This document shows, in pieces, positions 1,970 through 43,892 of a stretch of DNA of 43,947 nucleotides (position 1 is the first letter of the stretch; every line of letters begins with the position of its first letter). The translations under genes were made by a program, and so were the position numbers. The DNA comes from a phage: sequence record PZ671982.1, one strand, 5' to 3'. The notes under the pieces were generated by a model. The model saw only the letters and a program-made list of their open reading frames with translations, was not told where the DNA came from and made no database searches.

Positions 1970-3490
1970 ATGACCGTTAACGTTGACAACCAGCACCCGC
2001 TCTATGCGCGCATCGCGCCAGAGTGGAAAATGATCCGTGACTGCGTAGCAGGGGAGCGCGCCGTGAAGGCGTGCGGGCCATTGTACCTGCCACACCCAGC
2101 CAGCGGCGACACCACCGACCCGAAATCGCGTGCGCGCTATAAGGCATATAAGCAACGTGCTGTCTTCCTGAACGCCACCGCCCGCACACTGAATGCCCTG
2201 TTAGGCGTGGCCTTCGCCAAACCGGTGAGTATGGACCTTTCCGGGGCAATGGCTGACCTGATTGATGACGTAGACGGCAGCGGGATGCCGCTGGCGCAAC
2301 TCCTGCGCGGCGCTATGTCGGAAGTGCTGCAATCGGGCCGCGCTGGCTTTATGGTGGACTACGACCGCCAGGCGCATTTTGACGAACTGGGTAACGTAGT
2401 GCCGCAGACCGCCGCTGAAATGGCGGCACACCGCCCGCTTATCCGCCTGTATACGGCTGAACAGATCATCAACTGGCGGCAGACACACGGGGTCGACACG
2501 CTAATCGTGCTGAAGGAGACGGACGAAATCAGCACCGAAGACCCGGACGACTTCGCAAACCACGAGGTAACCATCTGGACCGAGCTTCGCATGATTGACG
2601 GCAAGGCACACGCCCGCCGCTGGTTTTACAACGCTGACACGTCCGAGGTGCAAATGGACTTGCCGCGGGGATTCACCCGCACCGACCTTGTACCATTGGT
2701 GGATGCTTCCGGTAATGCGCTTACGCAACTGCCTTTCTGTTGGTGTGGCGCGGTGGATAACAATGCAACACCCGATGCCGCACCGCTGGCGGATATCGCG
2801 TCCATCAACATTAAGCACTACAACGCCGAAGCCGACGTCGCAGAGATTGCGCACATCGTGGGCCAGCCTACGCTCATTACAACCGGTCTGACCCAATCAT
2901 GGGCTGATAAAAACCTGAAGGGCGGCATTGCGCTCGGGGCAACTAAGGGCGTTATCCTGGGCCAGAATATGGACGCTAAACTTCTTCAGGCGGAGGAGCG
3001 CAACCTGTCTGTTGCCCTATGTGAGCGCCGCGAATTGCAAATGGCTAAACTGGGCGCTGCCCTGGTTGAGAAGGGGACCGCACCTAAGACGGCAACCGAA
3101 GCAGCCTACGATGCGCAGACTGATAACAGTATCCTGTCACTGATTGCCGGTAACGTTGAGAAGGCTTTCAACCGTGCGCTGCAAATCGTAAAGCTGTTCA
3201 CGGGCGACACCGCTGATCAACGCGTAACGCTGAACAAGTTCTACACCGAAATCACGGTTGACGCACAGCTTATGACCGCAATGATGGCGGGTGTGCAGAC
3301 TGGCACGGTCCGTCTGGCGGACTTTATCAAGTGGATGATGGCCCAGGGCGTCATTGATGACTCGCAAACCGTCGAGCAGGTGGAAGACGAACTGCGAAAT
3401 CAGAATCCATTACCTCAAATGTCCCCGGATGCGGTAGAATCTACCGAAGAAGACCCGGACAAGGTAGCGGACAATGGCGAAGACAATTAA
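1970..3490 (+). CDS. portal protein
   Basis: 506 aa ORF immediately after terminase, acidic C-terminus, RBS AAGGAAA upstream; synteny terminase-portal-MuF. Confidence 0.75.
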   Translation: MTVNVDNQHPLYARIAPEWKMIRDCVAGERAVKACGPLYLPHPASGDTTDPKSRARYKAYKQRAVFLNATARTLNALLGVAFAKPVSMDLSGAMADLIDDVDGSGMPLAQLLRGAMSEVLQSGRAGFMVDYDRQAHFDELGNVVPQTAAEMAAHRPLIRLYTAEQIINWRQTHGVDTLIVLKETDEISTEDPDDFANHEVTIWTELRMIDGKAHARRWFYNADTSEVQMDLPRGFTRTDLVPLVDASGNALTQLPFCWCGAVDNNATPDAAPLADIASINIKHYNAEADVAEIAHIVGQPTLITTGLTQSWADKNLKGGIALGATKGVILGQNMDAKLLQAEERNLSVALCERRELQMAKLGAALVEKGTAPKTATEAAYDAQTDNSILSLIAGNVEKAFNRALQIVKLFTGDTADQRVTLNKFYTEITVDAQLMTAMMAGVQTGTVRLADFIKWMMAQGVIDDSQTVEQVEDELRNQNPLPQMSPDAVESTEEDPDKVADNGEDN

Positions 3491-24081: not shown

Positions 24082-24591
24082 TTATTTAAGTGCGCCAGTC
24101 ACCAGTGTTTTTTCCATGTTACGGAAATCTTCCTGCGTCATGCAGATTTTCGATCCGTCTTCGCCAGTGAGCACGACCATAGGCTGGACGTCCTGATCTA
24201 CGATGCCAAAATTAGCGGCTGTAACCGTTTTACCGGGGGTAAATGCGCCGCCTGTTTTGACGGGCCAACCTTTGAGGCTATCGAATTGTGCTGCCGTTGT
24301 ATCGATCTGAATCTCGTCATGCCCGGTCATGTAAGACTCGCCCAGCAGGGCGGCATACGCCACCAGATCCACGATGTTATCTTCCTGGTGCTTACGGTGC
24401 TGGCGCACCAGCTTCAGGCAGATCAGGAAGGTCCAGGCTTCTTGCTCGGTAAGGTCGCGACCGGTAAGCGCGTTAAACACGGCAGCAATTTGTTTAGCGC
24501 TGCGTTCTTCTTTCGCGTTGTCATAGCCGTTTTCTTTCCCGCGCTGTTCCATAGTGGTGGCGGCGTTTTTGCAGTATTCGAATGCTTTCAC
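24082..24591 (-). CDS. hypothetical protein
   Basis: ORF extends to 24669 but that N-terminus is built from the TTGGTTGCA promoter palindrome; more likely start GTG 24591 (RBS AAGGG) or ATG 24552. Confidence 0.45.
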   Translation of the reverse strand: MKAFEYCKNAATTMEQRGKENGYDNAKEERSAKQIAAVFNALTGRDLTEQEAWTFLICLKLVRQHRKHQEDNIVDLVAYAALLGESYMTGHDEIQIDTTAAQFDSLKGWPVKTGGAFTPGKTVTAANFGIVDQDVQPMVVLTGEDGSKICMTQEDFRNMEKTLVTGALK

Positions 24592-24639
24592 AGTATTACC
24601 CTTTTTTAGCGAGGGGGCGGTATTGCCCCCGACACGTTT

Positions 24640-24669
24640 ACTATAGTGCAACCAACCTATTGGTTGCAA
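24640..24669 (-). promoter_or_regulatory. sigma70-like promoter (TTGCAA-18-TATAGT) inside a perfect TGCAACCAA/TTGGTTGCA palindrome
   Basis: Read on - strand; followed by 5' UTR hairpin GGGGGC-ggtatt-GCCCCC (24611..24634). Confidence 0.35.
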
Positions 24670-25127
24670 GTGAATTTTGCAACGTTTATCGCGTAAATTT
24701 TCGGGACCAAATCACCACACGCCCGGCGAATTGCCGCGATGTTCTTCTCGCAATCTTCAATGATGACCAGTTCCGACACGTCCGCATAGCAGACCATTTT
24801 GAACACGGCGCACGCCTTAAACTCTGGCGGCGGGGTGTCGTCCAGCATGTGGCGCATGAATAACCGACCTACGGGGAAGACTTCCAGTTGTTCGGCGGTG
24901 GTGCCCCAACATTCTCGCTGCCGGTTGGTTAGATACGCGATCTCGAAGCCTTGCTCTTTATACATGCGCAGTAGCGGCAGCATATCCATGTTAAGGTCTT
25001 CGCGGACGTGCGCCTTGTGCCACTTCGCCCAGAAGGTGGATTTAGTTTTTATACCCGGCACCAGGTCGGCACGCGCATCGCTTGAACCATTAATAACGCC
25101 ATCCAAATCGCAAATCAGTAATTTCAT
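24657..25127 (-). CDS. HAD-superfamily phosphatase-like protein
   Basis: N-terminal LICDLDGV (DxDG[TV] motif I), RBS GAGGA. Confidence 0.55.
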   Translation of the reverse strand: MKLLICDLDGVINGSSDARADLVPGIKTKSTFWAKWHKAHVREDLNMDMLPLLRMYKEQGFEIAYLTNRQRECWGTTAEQLEVFPVGRLFMRHMLDDTPPPEFKACAVFKMVCYADVSELVIIEDCEKNIAAIRRACGDLVPKIYAINVAKFTCNQ

Positions 25128-25348
25128 TTCAATTCCTCAATCAAATTTTCACGAACAATACGGGCGGAAAACGTGTCACACACAAGATGGCATTTGGCAG
25201 CCATTACAAGCCCGCCAGTAAGGTCCATGCCAAGCAATTGCTCCGGGCGGCTGCAACGCCGCACTTTGTTCTCCCTCGGGTTAATTTGGTAGCGTTTAAC
25301 AATTTCGTCCACGACGCGCGGACTGCGATCAACGATTAAGATATTCAT
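25124..25348 (-). CDS. hypothetical protein (74 aa)
   Basis: ORF with ATG 25348; overlaps neighbours in operon fashion. Confidence 0.4.
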   Translation of the reverse strand: MNILIVDRSPRVVDEIVKRYQINPRENKVRRCSRPEQLLGMDLTGGLVMAAKCHLVCDTFSARIVRENLIEELK

Positions 25349-25814
25349 GTAGCTCACTCTCGCTCATTATTTCAATTTGTGCGCTGCCGGTGGGTGGCGC
25401 TTCGTCAAAGATTATCAATTGCTGGCACTTGTTATTGCTCGGCCCGACTTCACCGGTCACAGCATGTATAAATCGGATACGCCAGTCCAGAAGAATTATC
25501 AGGTTTGCAGTCTTCCGGGCCAGCTTCGCCCACTTCGTCGACGTGTCCTGATTCAGTAGCATGACGGTCCGGCGTCCGTGCGCTGCGCACTCGACCCACG
25601 GCAGCGGATCGGAATACGGCGGGTTGCACCACTTCCACCCTTCCAACTCTGACCAGTCCGCATCGAGCGCGCTGTGCTCCGCCGTGAAGTAACGCGGTAG
25701 CAGGTGGTTGGCATCGCTCGCCGCCATGTCATAACGGAATCGGTACTTCCGGCGCAGCGGTTTAAATAAAGCTGGCGGCGTGCGCCAGCTATCTTTTTGC
25801 TCATTCTTCTGCAT
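25329..25814 (-). CDS. DNA N6-adenine methyltransferase (phage Dam-type)
   Basis: 161 aa with WRTPPALF, DMAASDANH and catalytic NPPY motifs characteristic of small phage Dam enzymes. Confidence 0.75.
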   Translation of the reverse strand: MQKNEQKDSWRTPPALFKPLRRKYRFRYDMAASDANHLLPRYFTAEHSALDADWSELEGWKWCNPPYSDPLPWVECAAHGRRTVMLLNQDTSTKWAKLARKTANLIILLDWRIRFIHAVTGEVGPSNNKCQQLIIFDEAPPTGSAQIEIMSESELHEYLNR

Positions 25815-26259
25815 GATCTGGATCTATCGCGTACAGGGCAATTTTCTTATTACTGTTTAGAACGCGTTGCACGCGCTTTAATTCCTCGGTGCCGAGCGGT
25901 CGGCAGTCGGAGTAGTAAGACCCGTTCCCCCGCCACGCAACCAGCACCAGGTCTTTCCGGTCAATCTTAGACTGGCGGCCCTTCGGACGCACGTACTCCT
26001 CGGCCCGTTTGCAATGCTCACGCAGACCATCGGCAGTGATGCGGTTTAGTGCAACGCTGGTGGTGTATCCGGTGCGCTGCATAATCCCCATCAATTCGAA
26101 AAGCAGTTCGAAGCGCTCCTCTAGCTCCTGGCGCACTTTCTTCTCGCCCTCATATAGCGCCTGGTTGGTGTCCGCCAACGCGTTCGCACGTTCGGCTTGT
26201 TCGCGGGCTTCGAGGCATTGCGCGGCCCAGTAATTTTTCTCTTCTTGTAAAATTTTCAT
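25801..26259 (-). CDS. hypothetical protein with N-terminal coiled coil
   Basis: 152 aa, RBS GGAGA; strong promoter directly upstream. Confidence 0.5.
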   Translation of the reverse strand: MKILQEEKNYWAAQCLEAREQAERANALADTNQALYEGEKKVRQELEERFELLFELMGIMQRTGYTTSVALNRITADGLREHCKRAEEYVRPKGRQSKIDRKDLVLVAWRGNGSYYSDCRPLGTEELKRVQRVLNSNKKIALYAIDPDHAEE

Positions 26260-29042: not shown

Positions 29043-29071
29043 ACTATACTGTTAAGCGACCAATTCAGCAA
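29043..29071 (-). promoter_or_regulatory. sigma70-like promoter (TTGCTG-17-TATAGT) with ATTGGTTGC motif
   Basis: Read on - strand upstream of zinc-ribbon gene. Confidence 0.35.
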
Positions 29072-29330
29072 CCAATAAATCACAGTCGGCTATGTTGTCG
29101 ATAACGCGAACGTCCGCACCGCGGCGGGCCATTCGCTCATGTTCTCGTACCTGGTGCGGCTTCGGTTTGCCGCCGGGTCGCTTCACTTCGACGAAAACTA
29201 TCTTGCCGTTGATGATGATTATAAGGTCTGGCGCTCCCGCGCGCCCCTCCCATGCCACTTTACGGCAGAATCCGCCGACGGCTTTAACCAACTTCATAAG
29301 GTGACTTTGGATCTTGCCTTCTGGTGTCAT
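29052..29330 (-). CDS. VRR-NUC domain nuclease
   Basis: PDLIIIINGKIVFVEVKRPGGKPKPHQ matches the VRR-NUC PD-(D/E)xK signature; start ATG 29330 overlaps upstream stop (ATGA). Confidence 0.7.
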   Translation of the reverse strand: MTPEGKIQSHLMKLVKAVGGFCRKVAWEGRAGAPDLIIIINGKIVFVEVKRPGGKPKPHQVREHERMARRGADVRVIDNIADCDLLVAELVA

Positions 29331-29659
29331 TGTGCGTTCCTCACTCGGCATATCTCACCCGCAATATGCCCGATTAAATACGCCATAACCTCCTGGTTGT
29401 GGAGGTCCGGCGCAATCCCCCGGTCCCTCATGAGATTCATTGCTACGTGGGTGGCCTCATGAGGGACCGTGTGCATACTTGCGGTGTGTGGCATCCATAC
29501 AAGGCATGTTCCGTTGCCGAAAACGACGAAGGCATTGGCCTTAAAATCATCGATGCCAGGTTGATACCCGGTTATCCGCTTGCATTTTGCCGCCACCTCG
29601 TCAGCGCATGGCGAGACAAAAAATTCATATCGATAAACGTCTACTTTTACTTTTTTCAT
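29327..29659 (-). CDS. small HExxH zinc-metallopeptidase-like protein
   Basis: 110 aa from ATG 29659 (RBS AGGAAG); HEATH motif with nearby His residues; translationally coupled to VRR-NUC gene. Confidence 0.5.
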   Translation of the reverse strand: MKKVKVDVYRYEFFVSPCADEVAAKCKRITGYQPGIDDFKANAFVVFGNGTCLVWMPHTASMHTVPHEATHVAMNLMRDRGIAPDLHNQEVMAYLIGHIAGEICRVRNAQ

Positions 29660-29663
29660 AGTC

Positions 29664-31955
29664 TTACTTCCTGTAGCGATACATAACATCGCCCTCTGCG
29701 GCAAGCGGGAAGCCTTTCGCCCAAATAGGCAGGTCGCACATCAGCGCGCACAACTCCTCGGTTGTGTAGTCGTCAGTATCCGGCACTTCGGTGATCAATT
29801 CATCGTGTACGGACAGTACGATCTCATACCCCGCAGCTTCAACACCCGGCATGGACCATGCGAGGATATCGCGGCACAGCGCCTGCACGATGTTTTCCGT
29901 CAGTTTGCCGCCGTAGGTGTACTGGAATCCCCACTGGCGCGTCGTCTGATTCTCACCCTGATATTTAATGCGGGTGCTGGTGCGCTTCTTGCCGGTATCT
30001 TCGTCGATCTCGGTCGTCACTGACAGCGCAATGCCTGGATAACTCATGATGCGCCCCGACGGCAACTCAATTTTCAACCACCACCCCGCGGCGTTCGGAT
30101 CGTCGCGCTCCTCGTCGAAGGTAGGGTCGTGCTTCGCCTTCGTGCGGACTATCTTGAGCGCTTTCTTACCATCCGGGCGAACGTTCGCGCCAGCCCAGTA
30201 CGCTTTGCCTGGATTGCGGATTGCGCACAACACCGCGTCCTCAAGCTCTGCCCAAAAGGCTACCGTCTTCGGGTGAGCCTCGCGCCACATACGTTTAATC
30301 GCATCGCACGTAAGCCATACGTTTTTCGGCAGTATGTAAGTCGGGCGCTCGTCCTTCTTGCCAGGCTTCGGCGGTCGCTTCGCTTCGTTAATGCGGGCAT
30401 ATTCATAACCCCGTTTCGCCGCCGCCCAAATGTGATCGGGGAATGTGCCCTTCATCACTTCAGCCATCGCGTAAAGGTCGAGGCCCAGGTTTTTAGCGAA
30501 CTGCAAGAACGCCGCCACGCCACCACCATAGCCCAGGCCCAATTCGCACGCCTTACCGATCTGGCGTAAGTCTTTGCGGTTGGCTTTAATGTATTCCGGG
30601 TCAAGGCCGAACATCTTACCGGCAGTTTCACAATAGATATCGCGATCGGCCATAAACACCATGAGCGCTGTTTTCTCGCCAGCGATCCAGGCAAGGCCGC
30701 GCCCTTCCACGTTAGAATAGTCAGCTACAACAAACTTCTTACCCTTCGCCGGAATAATGCACCCGCGAACAGTCGAGGCCGTTAACTTCGATATGTCATA
30801 CGCCCAGTGCGCTGTCCCACGTAACAGGGAGTTGATGCCGTTGGTGAGCATGTGCGACCGCACCCAAAAGGAAATATCGCTCTCGCCTTCACGGCGTTTA
30901 ATCTTCCCTTCGTGGTCATCGCTATACTCGCCGCGTGCCAGGTTTTGCGGCTGAAATCCTTTGCCGGCCCAGCGCAGCGTGCGCTTTGCGCCGCCATACT
31001 GAAGACAACCACGGCGCCGACCATCGGCGGATAGGCCATTTACGAGCGGATTGTACTTAGTCGATGCCGTTGACGACGCACCGAGGCGCATCTCGATAAG
31101 CACTTTGCCTTCGTCTGGGAAGTCTGGATCTTCCAGCAGGTCGTTAAGCGTGGATTTCTGCGCGTTGTGGATTGTGAACGCAGGCGCGAGGTCGCGCAGT
31201 GCTGGCAGGAAGTCATTGCCGGTTAGCTTACCGCCGAAGCGCTCCCAGGCTTCCTCCTTCAATTCTTCCTTATGCGCCTGTACCGCTTTGATCGCGGCGT
31301 TCGCCAGGCCAACGTCCACATAGAAGCCACGGTCGTTGATCAACTGGTCAATAAGCAGGATTTCGTCTTCCTTCGGCGTGTTGCCCCAGTCCGGTATGCG
31401 CCAATAGACTTCCCTCATAGCGATGATATCCAACGCGGCATAGCGCAGGAATTTAGCCCACTCCTCTGGGTGCGTCTCGCGCGTGTAGCGGCGGATTTTG
31501 TAGGTTTTAGGGGTAGGCTTACAGAATCGTTTAATCAGCGCCTTGCCTGCCTTATCCTTCGCGTGATCTGCGTCAACGCCCAGCACCTGGCACTGCATAT
31601 CGAGGCTACCCGGCAACGCGTGTCGAAAGGCCATAATCATGGTATCTTCGATCTGGCACACTGGCAGGTCAATGCCCCACTTCTCGCGAATAACCAGGCG
31701 GTCAAACAGGAGGCCGTTAGCCATCACTATTTTTGCTTTCTTGCGGGAGACACGGCGGAGCGCCTTGCGCAGTTCCCGCGGCATTGTGGGGGACTCGGTG
31801 CAATCCCACGTCTGCACGCGGCCTTCGTCGATGGCGTATGTGCAAATCATAATCTCGGTAGTTGGGTGTTCCGCGTAGGCGTATGCGCCCACTTTCTTCA
31901 GGTCTACCGCGCTAAATGTTTCGGTGTCGAGAAACAGGCGTTCGAAGTCTTTCAT
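29664..31955 (-). CDS. DNA polymerase, family A, with 3'-5' exonuclease domain
   Basis: Exo I motif FLDTETFS; pol motif A VADYSNVEGR, motif B RKDLRQIGKACELGLGYGG, motif C VHDE; 763 aa. Confidence 0.9.
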   Translation of the reverse strand: MKDFERLFLDTETFSAVDLKKVGAYAYAEHPTTEIMICTYAIDEGRVQTWDCTESPTMPRELRKALRRVSRKKAKIVMANGLLFDRLVIREKWGIDLPVCQIEDTMIMAFRHALPGSLDMQCQVLGVDADHAKDKAGKALIKRFCKPTPKTYKIRRYTRETHPEEWAKFLRYAALDIIAMREVYWRIPDWGNTPKEDEILLIDQLINDRGFYVDVGLANAAIKAVQAHKEELKEEAWERFGGKLTGNDFLPALRDLAPAFTIHNAQKSTLNDLLEDPDFPDEGKVLIEMRLGASSTASTKYNPLVNGLSADGRRRGCLQYGGAKRTLRWAGKGFQPQNLARGEYSDDHEGKIKRREGESDISFWVRSHMLTNGINSLLRGTAHWAYDISKLTASTVRGCIIPAKGKKFVVADYSNVEGRGLAWIAGEKTALMVFMADRDIYCETAGKMFGLDPEYIKANRKDLRQIGKACELGLGYGGGVAAFLQFAKNLGLDLYAMAEVMKGTFPDHIWAAAKRGYEYARINEAKRPPKPGKKDERPTYILPKNVWLTCDAIKRMWREAHPKTVAFWAELEDAVLCAIRNPGKAYWAGANVRPDGKKALKIVRTKAKHDPTFDEERDDPNAAGWWLKIELPSGRIMSYPGIALSVTTEIDEDTGKKRTSTRIKYQGENQTTRQWGFQYTYGGKLTENIVQALCRDILAWSMPGVEAAGYEIVLSVHDELITEVPDTDDYTTEELCALMCDLPIWAKGFPLAAEGDVMYRYRK

Positions 31956-35746: not shown

Positions 35747-36175
35747 ATGAGCACAAACGAGACCTTAAATCGCTGGAACCATAAGAAATGGCCCCACCAA
35801 ATTAACCGCGCCACCGAGGATGATAATACCATCGCTTTCGGCGATATGGACGCGGACCCTATGACCCCTGAGCAAATAGCCGCCGATGTGCTGTCAATGG
35901 ACCGACATACGGCTTCGGAAATAATCGTTGCTCTGATAAACGAAATAAGCGGCAGCTATAACGAACTGAATGACCTGTACGCGGAGCTTGACCTGTTGAA
36001 AGGTGGTGCTATCGCAGCGGTGCGTAAATCCGAAGAGGCAGCACGCGAGATGGCTATCGCCCGCGAGAAATATATGCCTGTCGTTAAGCGCCTGCGTGCG
36101 GAAGGCTTGTCATGGAATCAGATCGCCGAGATGACTGGAATCAACCGTTCTACAATCCGCCAGTGGGCTAAATGA
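35747..36175 (+). CDS. HTH DNA-binding protein (putative regulator)
   Basis: 142 aa; C-terminal GLSWNQIAEMTGINRSTIRQWAK helix-turn-helix-like segment. Confidence 0.55.
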   Translation: MSTNETLNRWNHKKWPHQINRATEDDNTIAFGDMDADPMTPEQIAADVLSMDRHTASEIIVALINEISGSYNELNDLYAELDLLKGGAIAAVRKSEEAAREMAIAREKYMPVVKRLRAEGLSWNQIAEMTGINRSTIRQWAK

Positions 36176-40856: not shown

Positions 40857-41147
40857 ATGGATAAGCTAAACGAGTGGTTATTCGCCCTGGCATGTCTGGC
40901 GGGTGGCTTCGTAGGAGCACGCATTCATGGCGAGGCTACGAAAGGGCCGCTAAACTTCGTTTTGTATGTCGTAGTTGGCTTCCTGTGTGCCATATTTGGC
41001 GCACCGGCTATTGCCGAGTGGGCTGGTTTGTCGGGTGAGCGCACTGTCGCCGGTTTGGGCTTCGTAACTGCGATCTTCTGGATGCCAATCGCCGACCGGA
41101 TCAGGGAGACTATTGCGTCGTTCCGACTTCCGGGGGGTGCAAAATGA
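40857..41147 (+). CDS. holin (putative, 3 predicted TMDs)
   Basis: 96 aa with three hydrophobic segments; directly upstream of second membrane protein and endolysin. Confidence 0.55.
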   Translation: MDKLNEWLFALACLAGGFVGARIHGEATKGPLNFVLYVVVGFLCAIFGAPAIAEWAGLSGERTVAGLGFVTAIFWMPIADRIRETIASFRLPGGAK

Positions 41148-41389
41148 TTATCTCCGTCCTGTTGTTTGTTATCATAGGGGCTTCGTCCCTGTTTAACGTG
41201 TATGCGCCGTCCGTCCAGGATGGCATTTTCGGTCGGGTGCTGTATCTGCTAACGGCGATGATCTGCGTTATTGGATTGTTGCAAACGGGAGACGTATCAG
41301 ACACCACCTGGACCGCGTTAATCTGGCTGTTTGCATTGCGCACCTTGCGTAATGCGGTTTTAAATGGGGTAAAACATGCGATTCAGTGA
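41144..41389 (+). CDS. second holin-like membrane protein (antiholin/pinholin candidate)
   Basis: 81 aa, hydrophobic segments IISVLLFVIIGASSLF and LYLLTAMICVIGLL; overlaps both neighbours. Confidence 0.45.
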   Translation: MIISVLLFVIIGASSLFNVYAPSVQDGIFGRVLYLLTAMICVIGLLQTGDVSDTTWTALIWLFALRTLRNAVLNGVKHAIQ

Positions 41390-41867
41390 CAACGGTCTAA
41401 GATTCACGGCAGCATGGGAGGCTTTTAGCCCGGTGCCGTATTTCGCGACCAAGAAAGAGCAGGCCCGCGGCCTGTACACCTGGGGTTATGGTCATACCGG
41501 CACTAATCCGCCTCGAAGCATTACCCGCGAGGAAGCGCTGGCACTACTCAAGCGCGATGTGGCGTATGCCGAGGACTGGGTGAACAAATACGCCCATAAG
41601 AGCATTAATCAGGCGCAATTCGATGCGCTGGTGGACCTGGTAATCAATGCCGGTCCTGGTCCGATCGTACCGGATGACGTCGCGAATGATTTCGATGACG
41701 CGGTGCGACTGGGAGACTGGGCGAAGGTCCGTGCTATCCTGCCGCAGTTCCGCAAGCAAGGCGGGGAAGTGCTTAAGGGTCTGGTGCGCCGTGCAATCGG
41801 CAGACAGGCTTTATTTGATGGTAAGCAGTGGGACGTTGCCGAGCGAATCGGTCGTAACGCAGCATAA
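41376..41867 (+). CDS. endolysin (phage lysozyme-like)
   Basis: N-terminal SDNGLRFTAAWEAFSPVPY...WGYGHTG resembles the catalytic region of T4/P22-type lysozymes; follows holins. Confidence 0.65.
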   Translation: MRFSDNGLRFTAAWEAFSPVPYFATKKEQARGLYTWGYGHTGTNPPRSITREEALALLKRDVAYAEDWVNKYAHKSINQAQFDALVDLVINAGPGPIVPDDVANDFDDAVRLGDWAKVRAILPQFRKQGGEVLKGLVRRAIGRQALFDGKQWDVAERIGRNAA

Positions 41868-41883
41868 TACGAGGGGACACGAT

Positions 41884-42285
41884 ATGTTAGATTCGATCTT
41901 GCGACGTAAAGAACGCATTATCAAGACACTGCCCGCAGTGCAGAACCCAGAAGCGCGCCGCATCCTGGCTGGGGATATGAATATTTCTGGCGTCTTTGAC
42001 AAGGCCGTGCCTGAAGGTAAGCCGGTGGCAAGCGCTACGGTCACCATCGACCCAGTTACCGCCGCAGTTGGTGAGACAGCCACCGCGACTGTTGCCGTGC
42101 TGCCGTCCGACGCGGCTAACAAGACCGGATCGTGGGTGTCGGCTAACACTAACCGCGCCGCAATCAATCCGACTACCGGCGAAATCACAGCTAAAGCGGC
42201 TGGCAACGTCCGCATTGTTTGGGTGGCGTCCGACGGCAGTGGGGTGCAAGCAGACGCAGGCTTCACAGTAACGGCAGCCGCATAA
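41884..42285 (+). CDS. bacterial Ig-like (Big_2-type) domain protein
   Basis: ATG 41884 (RBS AGGGGA); Thr/Ala/Val-rich beta pattern ATVTIDPVTAAVGETATATV...AAGNVRIVWVASDGSG; followed by terminator. Confidence 0.5.
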   Translation: MLDSILRRKERIIKTLPAVQNPEARRILAGDMNISGVFDKAVPEGKPVASATVTIDPVTAAVGETATATVAVLPSDAANKTGSWVSANTNRAAINPTTGEITAKAAGNVRIVWVASDGSGVQADAGFTVTAAA

Positions 42286-42293
42286 GCCAACAA

Positions 42294-42316
42294 GCCCGGA
42301 TAATACCGGGCTTTTT
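42294..42316 (+). terminator. rho-independent terminator (GCCCGG-ataata-CCGGGC + TTTTT)
   Basis: Seen in sequence. Confidence 0.6.
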
Positions 42317-42357: not shown

Positions 42358-42438
42358 ATGGCACGTAAAGATATTTGGGTATTAGCGATATGGACCACCG
42401 CGGCTTTTATCGGCATGGTTATTTGCGAATTGATATAG
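42358..42438 (+). CDS. tiny hydrophobic peptide (26 aa)
   Basis: ATG preceded by RBS AGAGGAG and TTGCAACCAA motif; sequence MARKDIWVLAIWTTAAFIGMVICELI is one TM-like helix. Confidence 0.3.
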   Translation: MARKDIWVLAIWTTAAFIGMVICELI

Positions 42439-42499
42439 CCCGCCGCCATACGGACCGTGGTATATTGTCCACGGTCCACTAATCAGGAATTAATTAAAT

Positions 42500-43642
42500 A
42501 TGCACCCGCAAACTAAAATTACCGATGAGCAATTGATCGCAGAAATTCAGGCAGGGACTACGGTTAAAGAGATTGCGAAGAAGTACGGGATCGCCCTGCG
42601 CAATGTCTATATGCGCAAAGCCCGCCTATCAAAAAAGGGGATTGGTCACGGTAATGATGCCGTGATCCGTAAGCGCGTTGCCGATGGCTTCGGGGTTAAG
42701 CGCGTATCGGCCCTGGTGCGCGGCAATGGCGAAGAGGTCATGTCGTGGGTCATCACTGAGCAGGACAAGGAGCGCCAACTCGAAGCTATGCGCGCTGTTG
42801 TCGATGGTATGAACAGCGAAATCACACCGGCAGCACCGGTAAGCGCCCCGCCAGTCCCGATCCAGGCACTTGACTTGCTCAACCTGTACACCGTGTCAGA
42901 CTTCCATCTGGGTATGCTGGCATGGGGCGAGGAGACTGGCGAAGATTGGGATATGGCGATCGCCGAAGACCTGTTTTACCGCTGGTTTGTCGAAGCCTTC
43001 GCACGCGCACCAGACGCAGGCACTGCCGTGATCAATATCCTCGGCGATATGGCCCACTTTGACAGCCTTGATGCCGTCACACCAGCAAGCGGTCACGTAC
43101 TGGACGCCGACACCCGCTACCAGAAACTGGTCCGATACATGATTCGCATGGTGCGCAACGTCGTCGAACTGGCGCTGCAAAAACACCACAAAGTCAAACT
43201 GCTAATCGTCCAGGGAAATCATGACGAGTCGGGTATGATTTGGCTGGCTGAGATGTTCAATACTCTGTACGAGAACGAGCCGCGCGTCGATGTGGATACG
43301 TCCCCGGACGTCTACAAAATTGTGCAGCACGGAAAGACCACGCTATTCTTTCACCACGGGCACAAAGCGCGATTCGATGTTATCGAGCAGGTTATGATCG
43401 CTAAATTCCGACAGGCGTTCGGGTCTAGCGAGTACAGCTATGCACATGTAGGCCACTTGCACCACCAGAAGATTGTAGAATCCCGCAACATGATTGTTGA
43501 GCAGCACCGGACACTCGCGGCGAAAGACGCATACGCCAGCCGCGGCGGTTGGATGTCCGGTCGTAGCGCCAATGTAATTACCTACAGCGCCAACTACGGC
43601 GAAGTGGCGCGCTTAACCATTAGCCCGGAAATGTTGAAATGA
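42500..43642 (+). CDS. HTH domain fused to Mre11/SbcD-like calcineurin-type metallophosphoesterase
   Basis: N-terminal HTH-like TVKEIAKKYGIALRNVYMRKARL; C-terminal motifs SDFHLG, GDMAHFD, GNHDE, HHGH, GHLHH; immediately upstream of small ORF and terminase. Confidence 0.6.
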   Translation: MHPQTKITDEQLIAEIQAGTTVKEIAKKYGIALRNVYMRKARLSKKGIGHGNDAVIRKRVADGFGVKRVSALVRGNGEEVMSWVITEQDKERQLEAMRAVVDGMNSEITPAAPVSAPPVPIQALDLLNLYTVSDFHLGMLAWGEETGEDWDMAIAEDLFYRWFVEAFARAPDAGTAVINILGDMAHFDSLDAVTPASGHVLDADTRYQKLVRYMIRMVRNVVELALQKHHKVKLLIVQGNHDESGMIWLAEMFNTLYENEPRVDVDTSPDVYKIVQHGKTTLFFHHGHKARFDVIEQVMIAKFRQAFGSSEYSYAHVGHLHHQKIVESRNMIVEQHRTLAAKDAYASRGGWMSGRSANVITYSANYGEVARLTISPEMLK

Positions 43643-43851
43643 TTAGACAAGTATTCATGAGCACGCAGGCGGACCGCCTGAAGGAACTACGCAAGCAACT
43701 CGAAGGCTTGCGCCGATTCGAACGAACGGCAGCAGCAATAGGCATGTCTATCAGCGAGCGGATCGAGATACTATCGCAAATACGCTACACAGAAGGCGCT
43801 ATAAGCGAAGTAGAAAGCATGTTAACACGATACTACGGTCGCGACGTTTAA
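43639..43851 (+). CDS. hypothetical protein (70 aa)
   Basis: ORF overlapping upstream stop; coiled-coil-like. Confidence 0.45.
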   Translation: MIRQVFMSTQADRLKELRKQLEGLRRFERTAAAIGMSISERIEILSQIRYTEGAISEVESMLTRYYGRDV

Positions 43852-43861
43852 ACCGCATAGC

Positions 43862-43892
43862 CTGCCGATTTGGTGGGCTTTTTTGTGCCTGT
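43862..43892 (+). terminator. weak terminator-like hairpin followed by CTTTTTTG
   Basis: Imperfect stem GCCTGCC / GGTGGGC followed by T run. Confidence 0.25.

Follow-up and report, generated by a model that had tools for sequence, protein, structure and literature searches.

The metallophosphoesterase (MPE) gp48 of mycobacteriophage A10ZJ24 has been shown to be both a DNA nuclease and a phosphodiesterase (PMC12287305). It is the only phage MPE with experimental data that we found, and the sole precedent for such an enzyme as a host-DNA nuclease. A further phage family, PHROG 704, carries the label 'DNA repair exonuclease'; a 2026 pangenome paper lists it under this name among the persistent core genes of Drexlerviridae, where it heads the lysis cassette in 508 of 522 members (PMC13164509), and papers on HK578, Dhillonvirus, T1 and Jerseyvirus enter it merely as a 'putative phosphoesterase' or 'DNA repair exonuclease'. 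Experimental work on any PHROG 704 member was not found in the literature library searched, and the label reflects remote similarity alone because no member of the family has been characterized. PHROG 704 is a core gene in several of the most often isolated and therapeutically used groups of enterobacterial siphoviruses (T1-like phages, Dhillonvirus, Jerseyvirus and Webervirus) and is also found in many prophages. Its interest comes from this size and persistence without assays, and not from unusual features in the DNA described here.

The window that we analysed, 43,947 bases in length, is a complete Dhillonvirus genome, from a virulent coliphage of the HK578-like type. A sequence-only reading of this DNA had proposed a gene for an HTH domain fused to an Mre11/SbcD-like MPE and had suggested a role in DNA-end processing for packaging or recombination, or else in the hydrolysis of nucleotide signals. 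The present analysis supports that interpretation in part. In our view, and with a probability of about one half, the gene product is a Rad50-independent, metal-dependent DNA phosphodiesterase (nuclease) that is tethered through its HTH and acts in the DNA-metabolism phase of infection, not in packaging.

Architecture and conservation of the HTH-MPE protein

The ORF was found exactly as proposed, with an ATG start and a length of 380 aa (Table 1). The protein matches phrog_704 with E = 1.9e-160 over residues 5-380 (positions 2-390 of the 390 in the profile) and shares 99.2% amino-acid identity with the phage HK578 protein; it is an ordinary member of a catalogued, uncharacterized phage family. 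A Pfam search for Metallophos and SbcD models, which had been put forward as a check, gave a near miss for the former (Metallophos, 21.3 bits against a gathering threshold of 21.5; Metallophos_2, 23 against 27; both just below) and no match for the latter. Among 111 homologues the Metallophos models detect only six at E <= 0.01. Because these scores lie under the gathering thresholds, assignment to the superfamily relies on the motifs, the fold and the PHROG match instead of on Pfam, and PHROG 704 is a divergent subfamily of the calcineurin-like metallophosphoesterases. A single-sequence phmmer search against the PDB returned only spurious matches to designed repeats.

The family was found by tblastn in 2,062 phage records, with hosts that include Escherichia, Klebsiella, Salmonella, Vibrio, Campylobacter, Flavobacterium, Rhodobacter and others, and an exhaustive HMMER scan gave 4,656 clusters at 50% identity, mostly of 370-420 aa. 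Structural relatives in BFVD come from Lactobacillus, Bacillus, Cellulophaga and Roseobacter phages, all of them uncharacterized. Prophage copies are present in the chromosomes of Microbulbifer, Pseudomonas, Roseateles, Massilia, Marinobacter, Erythrobacter and others; a blastn search for such copies in 5,426 complete E. coli genomes gave no match. Databases name the same protein 'phosphoesterase', 'winged helix-turn-helix domain-containing protein', 'oxidoreductase', 'DNA polymerase II' or 'HTH luxR-type domain-containing protein'.

All five phosphoesterase motifs that had been read from the sequence were located, in the same order. Conservation was assessed in an alignment of the 111 homologues (25-80% identity), which were gathered by three database searches. 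Because the metal-ligand residues are invariant or at least 90% conserved across this alignment, the active site is intact, and the inactivating substitutions that the sequence-only reading had named as grounds for abandoning its proposal were not seen. Motif II aligns with the GDLLH motif of T. maritima Mre11. The family-specific insertion (SGHxLDxDxR) that follows it is not present in SbcD, as the loop exposed by an hhalign comparison with E. coli SbcD illustrates. Codon comparisons with three Dhillonvirus homologues gave 81-84 synonymous and only 9-14 non-synonymous differences, which indicates strong purifying selection.

The AlphaFold2 model, calculated with the 111-sequence alignment as input, is of high confidence, with a mean pLDDT of 89.8 and a pTM of 0.77. 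Its C-terminal part has the alpha/beta-sandwich MPE fold of the calcineurin-like superfamily; the protein ends 59 residues past motif V, and the model has only core strands in this stretch. The HTH that had been claimed for the N-terminus is borne out by the modelled helices (residues 9-17, 22-29 and 33-45, followed by a further helix at 53-59) and by Pfam matches of homologues. Scores of the 380-aa protein itself against HTH models are sub-threshold (GerE, E = 0.011; HTH_28, 0.029). The N-termini of homologues match HTH_8 (2.8e-8), HTH_24 (9.7e-8) and Sigma70_r4_2 (5.2e-7) significantly, and HTH_1, HTH_23 and HTH_30 are also matched. To judge from these profiles, the N-terminal head is always an HTH across the family, with a sequence that drifts between Pfam models. 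Residues 1-60 are strongly basic (pI 10.35), and the HTH presumably binds DNA.

Table 1. Features of the HTH-MPE gene and its surroundings; residues are numbered in the 380-aa protein and their conservation refers to the 111-homologue alignment
Feature	Position	Strand	Basis or conservation
HTH-metallophosphoesterase gene, 380 aa, PHROG 704	42500..43642 (stop codon included)	+	ORF list, ATG start
Tri-helical HTH, residues 9-45	42524..42634	+	Model secondary structure, homologue HTH Pfam matches, pI
Beta-hairpin (64-73, 79-88) and helix (90-105) subdomain	42689..42814	+	Model, alignment; W83 invariant, S70 and K85 conserved
Pro/Ala-rich linker, residues 106-125	42815..42874	+	pLDDT 68-80; sequence ITPAAPVSAPPVPIQALD
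Binuclear metallophosphoesterase domain, residues 126-380, not followed by a capping domain	42875..43639	+	
Motif I SDFHLG, residues 133-138	42896..42913	+	D134, H136 invariant
Motif II GDMAHFD, residues 182-188	43043..43063	+	G182, H186 invariant; D183 at least 90%
Family-specific insertion ASGHVLDADTR	43085..43117	+	H199, D202 invariant; G198, L201, D204, R206 at least 90%
Motif III GNHDE, residues 239-243	43214..43228	+	G239, N240, H241 invariant
Motif IV HHGH, residues 285-288	43352..43363	+	H286 invariant
Motif V GHLHH, residues 318-322	43451..43465	+	G318, H319, H321 invariant
C-terminal family motif DAYASRGGWMS	43526..43558	+	D343, G350 invariant; Y345, A346, W351, R352, S353 at least 90%
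Putative extended -10 element TGGTATATT, about 35 nt 5' of ATG	42458..42466	+	Alignment of four Dhillonvirus upstream regions
Terminator-like hairpin and T-run, directly 3' of the Ig-domain gene	42292..42313	+	
70-aa basic helical ORF, phrog_20931, lineage-specific	43639..43851	+	Start overlaps MPE stop (ATGA)
Terminator-like hairpin and T-run at the end of the two-gene unit, ahead of the genome end and TerS	43859..43879	+	

Genome setting and gene neighbourhood

The last 1.6 kb of the genome shows 93-94% nucleotide identity to HK578, HH3, Bas84 and about 150 other phages. The record of 'Acinetobacter phage NJ01' (GenBank OQ221563.1) is 93% identical to the coliphage region and its host label looks doubtful, and the 88.6 kb 'Escherichia phage P-GXEC-L2P5' (PQ843332.1) matches in three places and looks like a concatenated or duplicated assembly. 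PHROG scans, which covered all ORFs of at least 190 aa and most of the smaller ones in the 43.9-kb genome, place TerS (1-573), TerL (573-1958) and the portal gene (1970-3490) first, followed by head and tail genes that reach 23437. These are followed by a minus-strand replication and recombination block, which contains a helicase, a DNA polymerase, a Gp2.5-like SSB/annealase, an exonuclease, two methylases, an HNH gene and a PNK-like gene, and then by the primase-helicase, two holins (40857-41389), the endolysin (41376-41867) and an Ig-domain protein (41884-42285). The Ig-domain gene, the HTH-MPE gene and the 70-aa ORF, in this order, form the end of the genome.

Several other features of the genome were noted. 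Residues 466-561 of the DNA polymerase ORF (29664-31955, minus strand) match phrog_93 'endonuclease', and a separate 99-aa phrog_93 ORF (29052-29351, minus strand) lies just downstream; a mobile endonuclease may have inserted here or left a remnant. A group of short end-healing/ligation-like genes at 24082-26259 (minus strand) includes those for a DUF6378 protein (195 aa), a HAD/PNK-like protein (156 aa, phrog_415) and a 'DNA ligase' family protein (152 aa, phrog_10530). Directly 5' of the primase-helicase gene is a 142-aa ORF (35747-36175, plus strand) that matches phrog_9366 'transposase' with E = 3e-44. In HK578, OLD-escape mutations have been reported both in gp46 and in the promoter region of gp45-gp46 (bioRxiv 10.64898/2026.07.10.737580), and gp45-gp46 may be the counterpart of this ORF and the primase-helicase gene.

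The sequence TGGTATATT upstream of the HTH-MPE gene is a putative promoter element. A pattern scan over 85 loci finds it conserved in Dhillonvirus only, and it was rejected as a family-wide feature. A perfect 9-bp inverted repeat (GGACCGTGG / CCACGGTCC, 42452-42477) straddles the element; this is probably not an autoregulatory operator, because the right arm is not conserved in sister phages, which retain only the extended -10 core. The gap 5' of the gene also holds a 26-aa hydrophobic ORF, MARKDIWVLAIWTTAAFIGMVICELI (42358-42438, plus strand), with a strong Shine-Dalgarno sequence, AAGAGGAG. It is present in one sister contig (L007) and absent from two (L005 and L006), and may encode a small membrane peptide. 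The number of terminator-like sites equals the chance expectation, and for the hairpin after the Ig-domain gene only its position is suggestive. The 70-aa ORF has no detectable homologue in Jerseyvirus. In Jerseyvirus SS8 an unrelated 76-aa ORF shows the same 4-nt overlap (L003:6116-6346), and the two may be fast-evolving or analogous coupled partners.

For the survey of gene context, ORFs were called at 80 viral and 29 genomic loci and the neighbours were clustered; the neighbourhoods of 85 loci were compared. The gene had been described as lying just upstream of the terminase genes, which holds only on a circular or permuted map; on the linear map TerS begins at base 1 and the gene lies close to the window's last base, 43947, with the 70-aa ORF and the second terminator-like hairpin between the HTH-MPE gene and TerS. 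Over the 85 loci the terminase is directly downstream in Dhillonvirus only, and at two other loci TerS/TerL-like genes, judged by eye, are two to three genes away. The gene forms a plus-strand island within the minus-strand tail module of Jerseyvirus, and in T1-like phages and Webervirus it is flanked by the Dam methylase gene and the lysis genes. Comparison of the N-terminal 125 aa with the phage's own TerS revealed no similarity. The packaging role that had been drawn from terminase adjacency is unsupported, because the adjacency is confined to Dhillonvirus, a hairpin separates the gene from TerS and the N-terminal domain is not TerS-like; the adjacency is a quirk of this lineage and no sign of such a role. 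A packaging accessory that processes DNA ends or the pac site together with the terminase could claim the arrangement in this phage and other Dhillonviruses, where on the circular map one small ORF separates the gene from TerS and TerL. The gene is found in phages with several unrelated terminase families, however, and we regard this as the least probable of the readings considered.

At 13 of the 85 loci, in three lineages, the HTH-MPE gene is followed by genes for a HAD_PNKP phosphatase (Pfam E 9e-16) and a P-loop kinase-like protein. This triad occurs in Webervirus, in Jersey-like phages and at locus L019 (for example L001:6167-7227, L008, L010, L011, L013 and L016), and the Drexlerviridae pangenome reports the same phosphatase and kinase pair (PMC13164509). 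The present phage's own PNK-like and DUF6378 genes (24082-25127) were considered as homologues of the Webervirus pair and rejected, as BLAST found no similarity. In prophages the HTH-MPE gene lies in a nin-like region with lysozyme or holin, NinG, NinB, HNH and Dam genes as recurrent neighbours. A MazG-type dATP/dGTP diphosphohydrolase (PF18909) is often encoded within four genes of the prophage MPE, directly after it at locus L004, and five matching proteins were found among the neighbours of 16 loci. The triad and the MazG-type neighbours may point to a functional link with nucleotide supply. All-against-all clustering of the neighbours revealed no partner family common to all lineages.

Proposed function of the protein

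In the mechanism that we favour, a basic HTH head and the beta-hairpin subdomain are tethered by the flexible Pro/Ala linker to the binuclear MPE domain. The HTH would provide the DNA contact that the Rad50/SbcC clamp and the capping domain give Mre11/SbcD, and the catalytic domain could thereby cut or trim DNA without an ATPase partner. In intermediates of replication and recombination such an enzyme would process DNA ends or secondary structures; alternatively or in addition it would release nucleotides. Terminase-driven packaging would lie outside its role. We infer all three elements of this proposal: DNA as the substrate, DNA binding by the HTH and the biological role.

The sequence-only reading had also pointed to class III cNMP phosphodiesterases (CpdA, Rv0805, GpdQ), which did not prove to be the closest class in fold and sequence. 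A small-molecule phosphodiesterase would act on cNMPs or cyclic oligonucleotides (as an anti-CBASS, anti-Pycsar or anti-Thoeris factor), NAD+, Ap4A or nucleotide-pool intermediates, and its HTH would serve regulation or localization. A basic, predicted DNA-binding head that is conserved in thousands of members is hard to explain for a soluble enzyme of this kind, and the best structural matches are nucleases. PADLOC 2.0 HMMs gave no family at E <= 0.01, which also led us to reject a defence-system component. The known phage enzymes that break down immune signals have other folds (2H, MBL), which likewise counts against this explanation, and we consider it unlikely.

If the nuclease reading is true, an HTH head in place of the capping domain and Rad50 clamp of Mre11/SbcD would extend the known range of nuclease architectures by a minimal one, and the inconsistent annotations as 'oxidoreductase', 'DNA polymerase II' and 'HTH luxR-type domain-containing protein' would be corrected; current views of DNA packaging would stay unchanged. 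More tentatively, PHROG 704 as a whole could represent a distinct, very widespread group of Mre11-like nucleases that are guided by their HTH, need no Rad50 and have a dedicated task in the DNA metabolism of siphoviruses, which would be, for example, the sequence- or structure-targeted processing of replication or recombination intermediates. A more radical version, suggested by the persistent place of the gene at the head of the lysis cassette, is that the family links the state of the DNA to the start of lysis and of late expression.

Comparison with Mre11/SbcD and other known systems

The nearest structural relatives of the modelled MPE domain appear to be the nuclease domains of Mre11/SbcD and the 3'-5' exonuclease of PolD DP1. 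Identity to T. maritima Mre11 (PDB entry 3qg5), S. aureus SbcD (7dog) and E. coli SbcD (6s6v) is just 14-17%. Unlike these proteins, the phage protein lacks a capping domain, a Rad50/SbcC-binding tail and an ATPase partner, and it has the N-terminal HTH head and the insertion after motif II. Neither the Mre11_DNA_bind nor the SbcD_C model of Pfam matches it, and none of the SbcD/Mre11 models in Pfam and NCBIfam (including NCBIfam sbcD) does so. When the family profile was compared with the PDB, only T. maritima Mre11/SbcD came near threshold, at the GDxxH motif, with a non-significant E of about 1; hhalign aligned motifs I-III of E. coli SbcD in register, but with a probability of 2.3%. The PHROG scans of the genome's ORFs uphold the earlier remark that no Rad50/SbcC-like partner is visible, as such an ORF was absent from the 43.9-kb genome and also from the neighbourhoods of the 85 related loci. 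That the protein is a genuine orthologue of Mre11/SbcD, with a Rad50/SbcC-type ATPase such as the SbcC of the host as its partner, is very improbable and already largely refuted by the unmatched models, the early end of the protein after motif V, the missing partner ORF and the low hhalign probability. The description 'Mre11/SbcD-like' seems fair as regards the fold and is wrong as regards strict family membership. In appearance at least, and perhaps in action, the protein resembles an Mre11 nuclease core whose accessory for engaging DNA is a different one.

The PolD DP1 small subunit, a 3'-5' proofreading exonuclease (5ihe), shares 12% identity with the phage protein, which differs in having neither an OB domain nor a polymerase partner. 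The phage DNA polymerase is a family A-type enzyme encoded 11 kb from the HTH-MPE gene.

The cluster A mycobacteriophage MPEs (A10ZJ24 gp48 and Bxb1 gp47) are likewise phage-encoded and have the five motifs. They are about 255 aa long with motif I at residue 10, and hence lack an HTH head. A specific kinship was rejected, as hhalign with Bxb1 gp47 gave a probability of 1.4% and aligned only motifs IV-V; because of this value, the HTH-MPE and the cluster A enzymes have the superfamily alone in common. As a sub-case of the nuclease reading, the protein could be a host-chromosome-degrading or counter-defence nuclease like A10ZJ24 gp48, which would break down host DNA at an early stage, shut off defence genes and supply the phage with dNMPs. 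The experimental precedent (PMC12287305), the kinase and phosphatase genes directly 3' of the gene in many phages and the gene's own sigma-70-type putative extended -10 element in Dhillonvirus speak for such a role. The lack of specific homology speaks against it, and it is hard to reconcile with family members in temperate prophages; we consider it distinctly unlikely.

Lambda NinH and NinI, a small HTH protein followed by a Ser/Thr phosphatase of the MPE type, have the same HTH plus MPE domain content, and prophage relatives of the present gene show a positional analogy to the lambda nin region (the HTH-MPE gene follows NinG and precedes lysis genes). NinI belongs to the PPP-family phosphatases and has no specific similarity to the HTH-MPE, which has neither the GDxxDRG and GNHE motifs of PPP-type enzymes nor similarity to the lambda phosphatase. 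A fusion of NinH and NinI was rejected, since NinH aligns over the generic HTH only (24% probability) and NinI gives 0.2%. A DNA-bound regulator or protein phosphatase for the late/lysis switch, as a positional analogue of NinH and NinI before Q, would have the HTH as its functional core and the MPE domain as sensor or phosphatase. The place of the gene ahead of the lysis genes in nearly all Drexlerviridae, directly after NinG in prophages (L004) and, in several viral contigs of lambdoid type, immediately ahead of a weak Q-like gene is consistent with this, as is the resemblance of the HTH to sigma-70 region 4, LuxR and Fis types and its alignment with NinH. We nonetheless judge it quite improbable, and retain the HTH-tethered nuclease as the preferred reading.

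Comparison with PHROG 704 itself indicates full-length membership, the same two-module architecture and the same conserved residues, with nothing materially different. Only the genomic position, after the lysis genes and before TerS, and the promoter element are specific to Dhillonvirus within the family.
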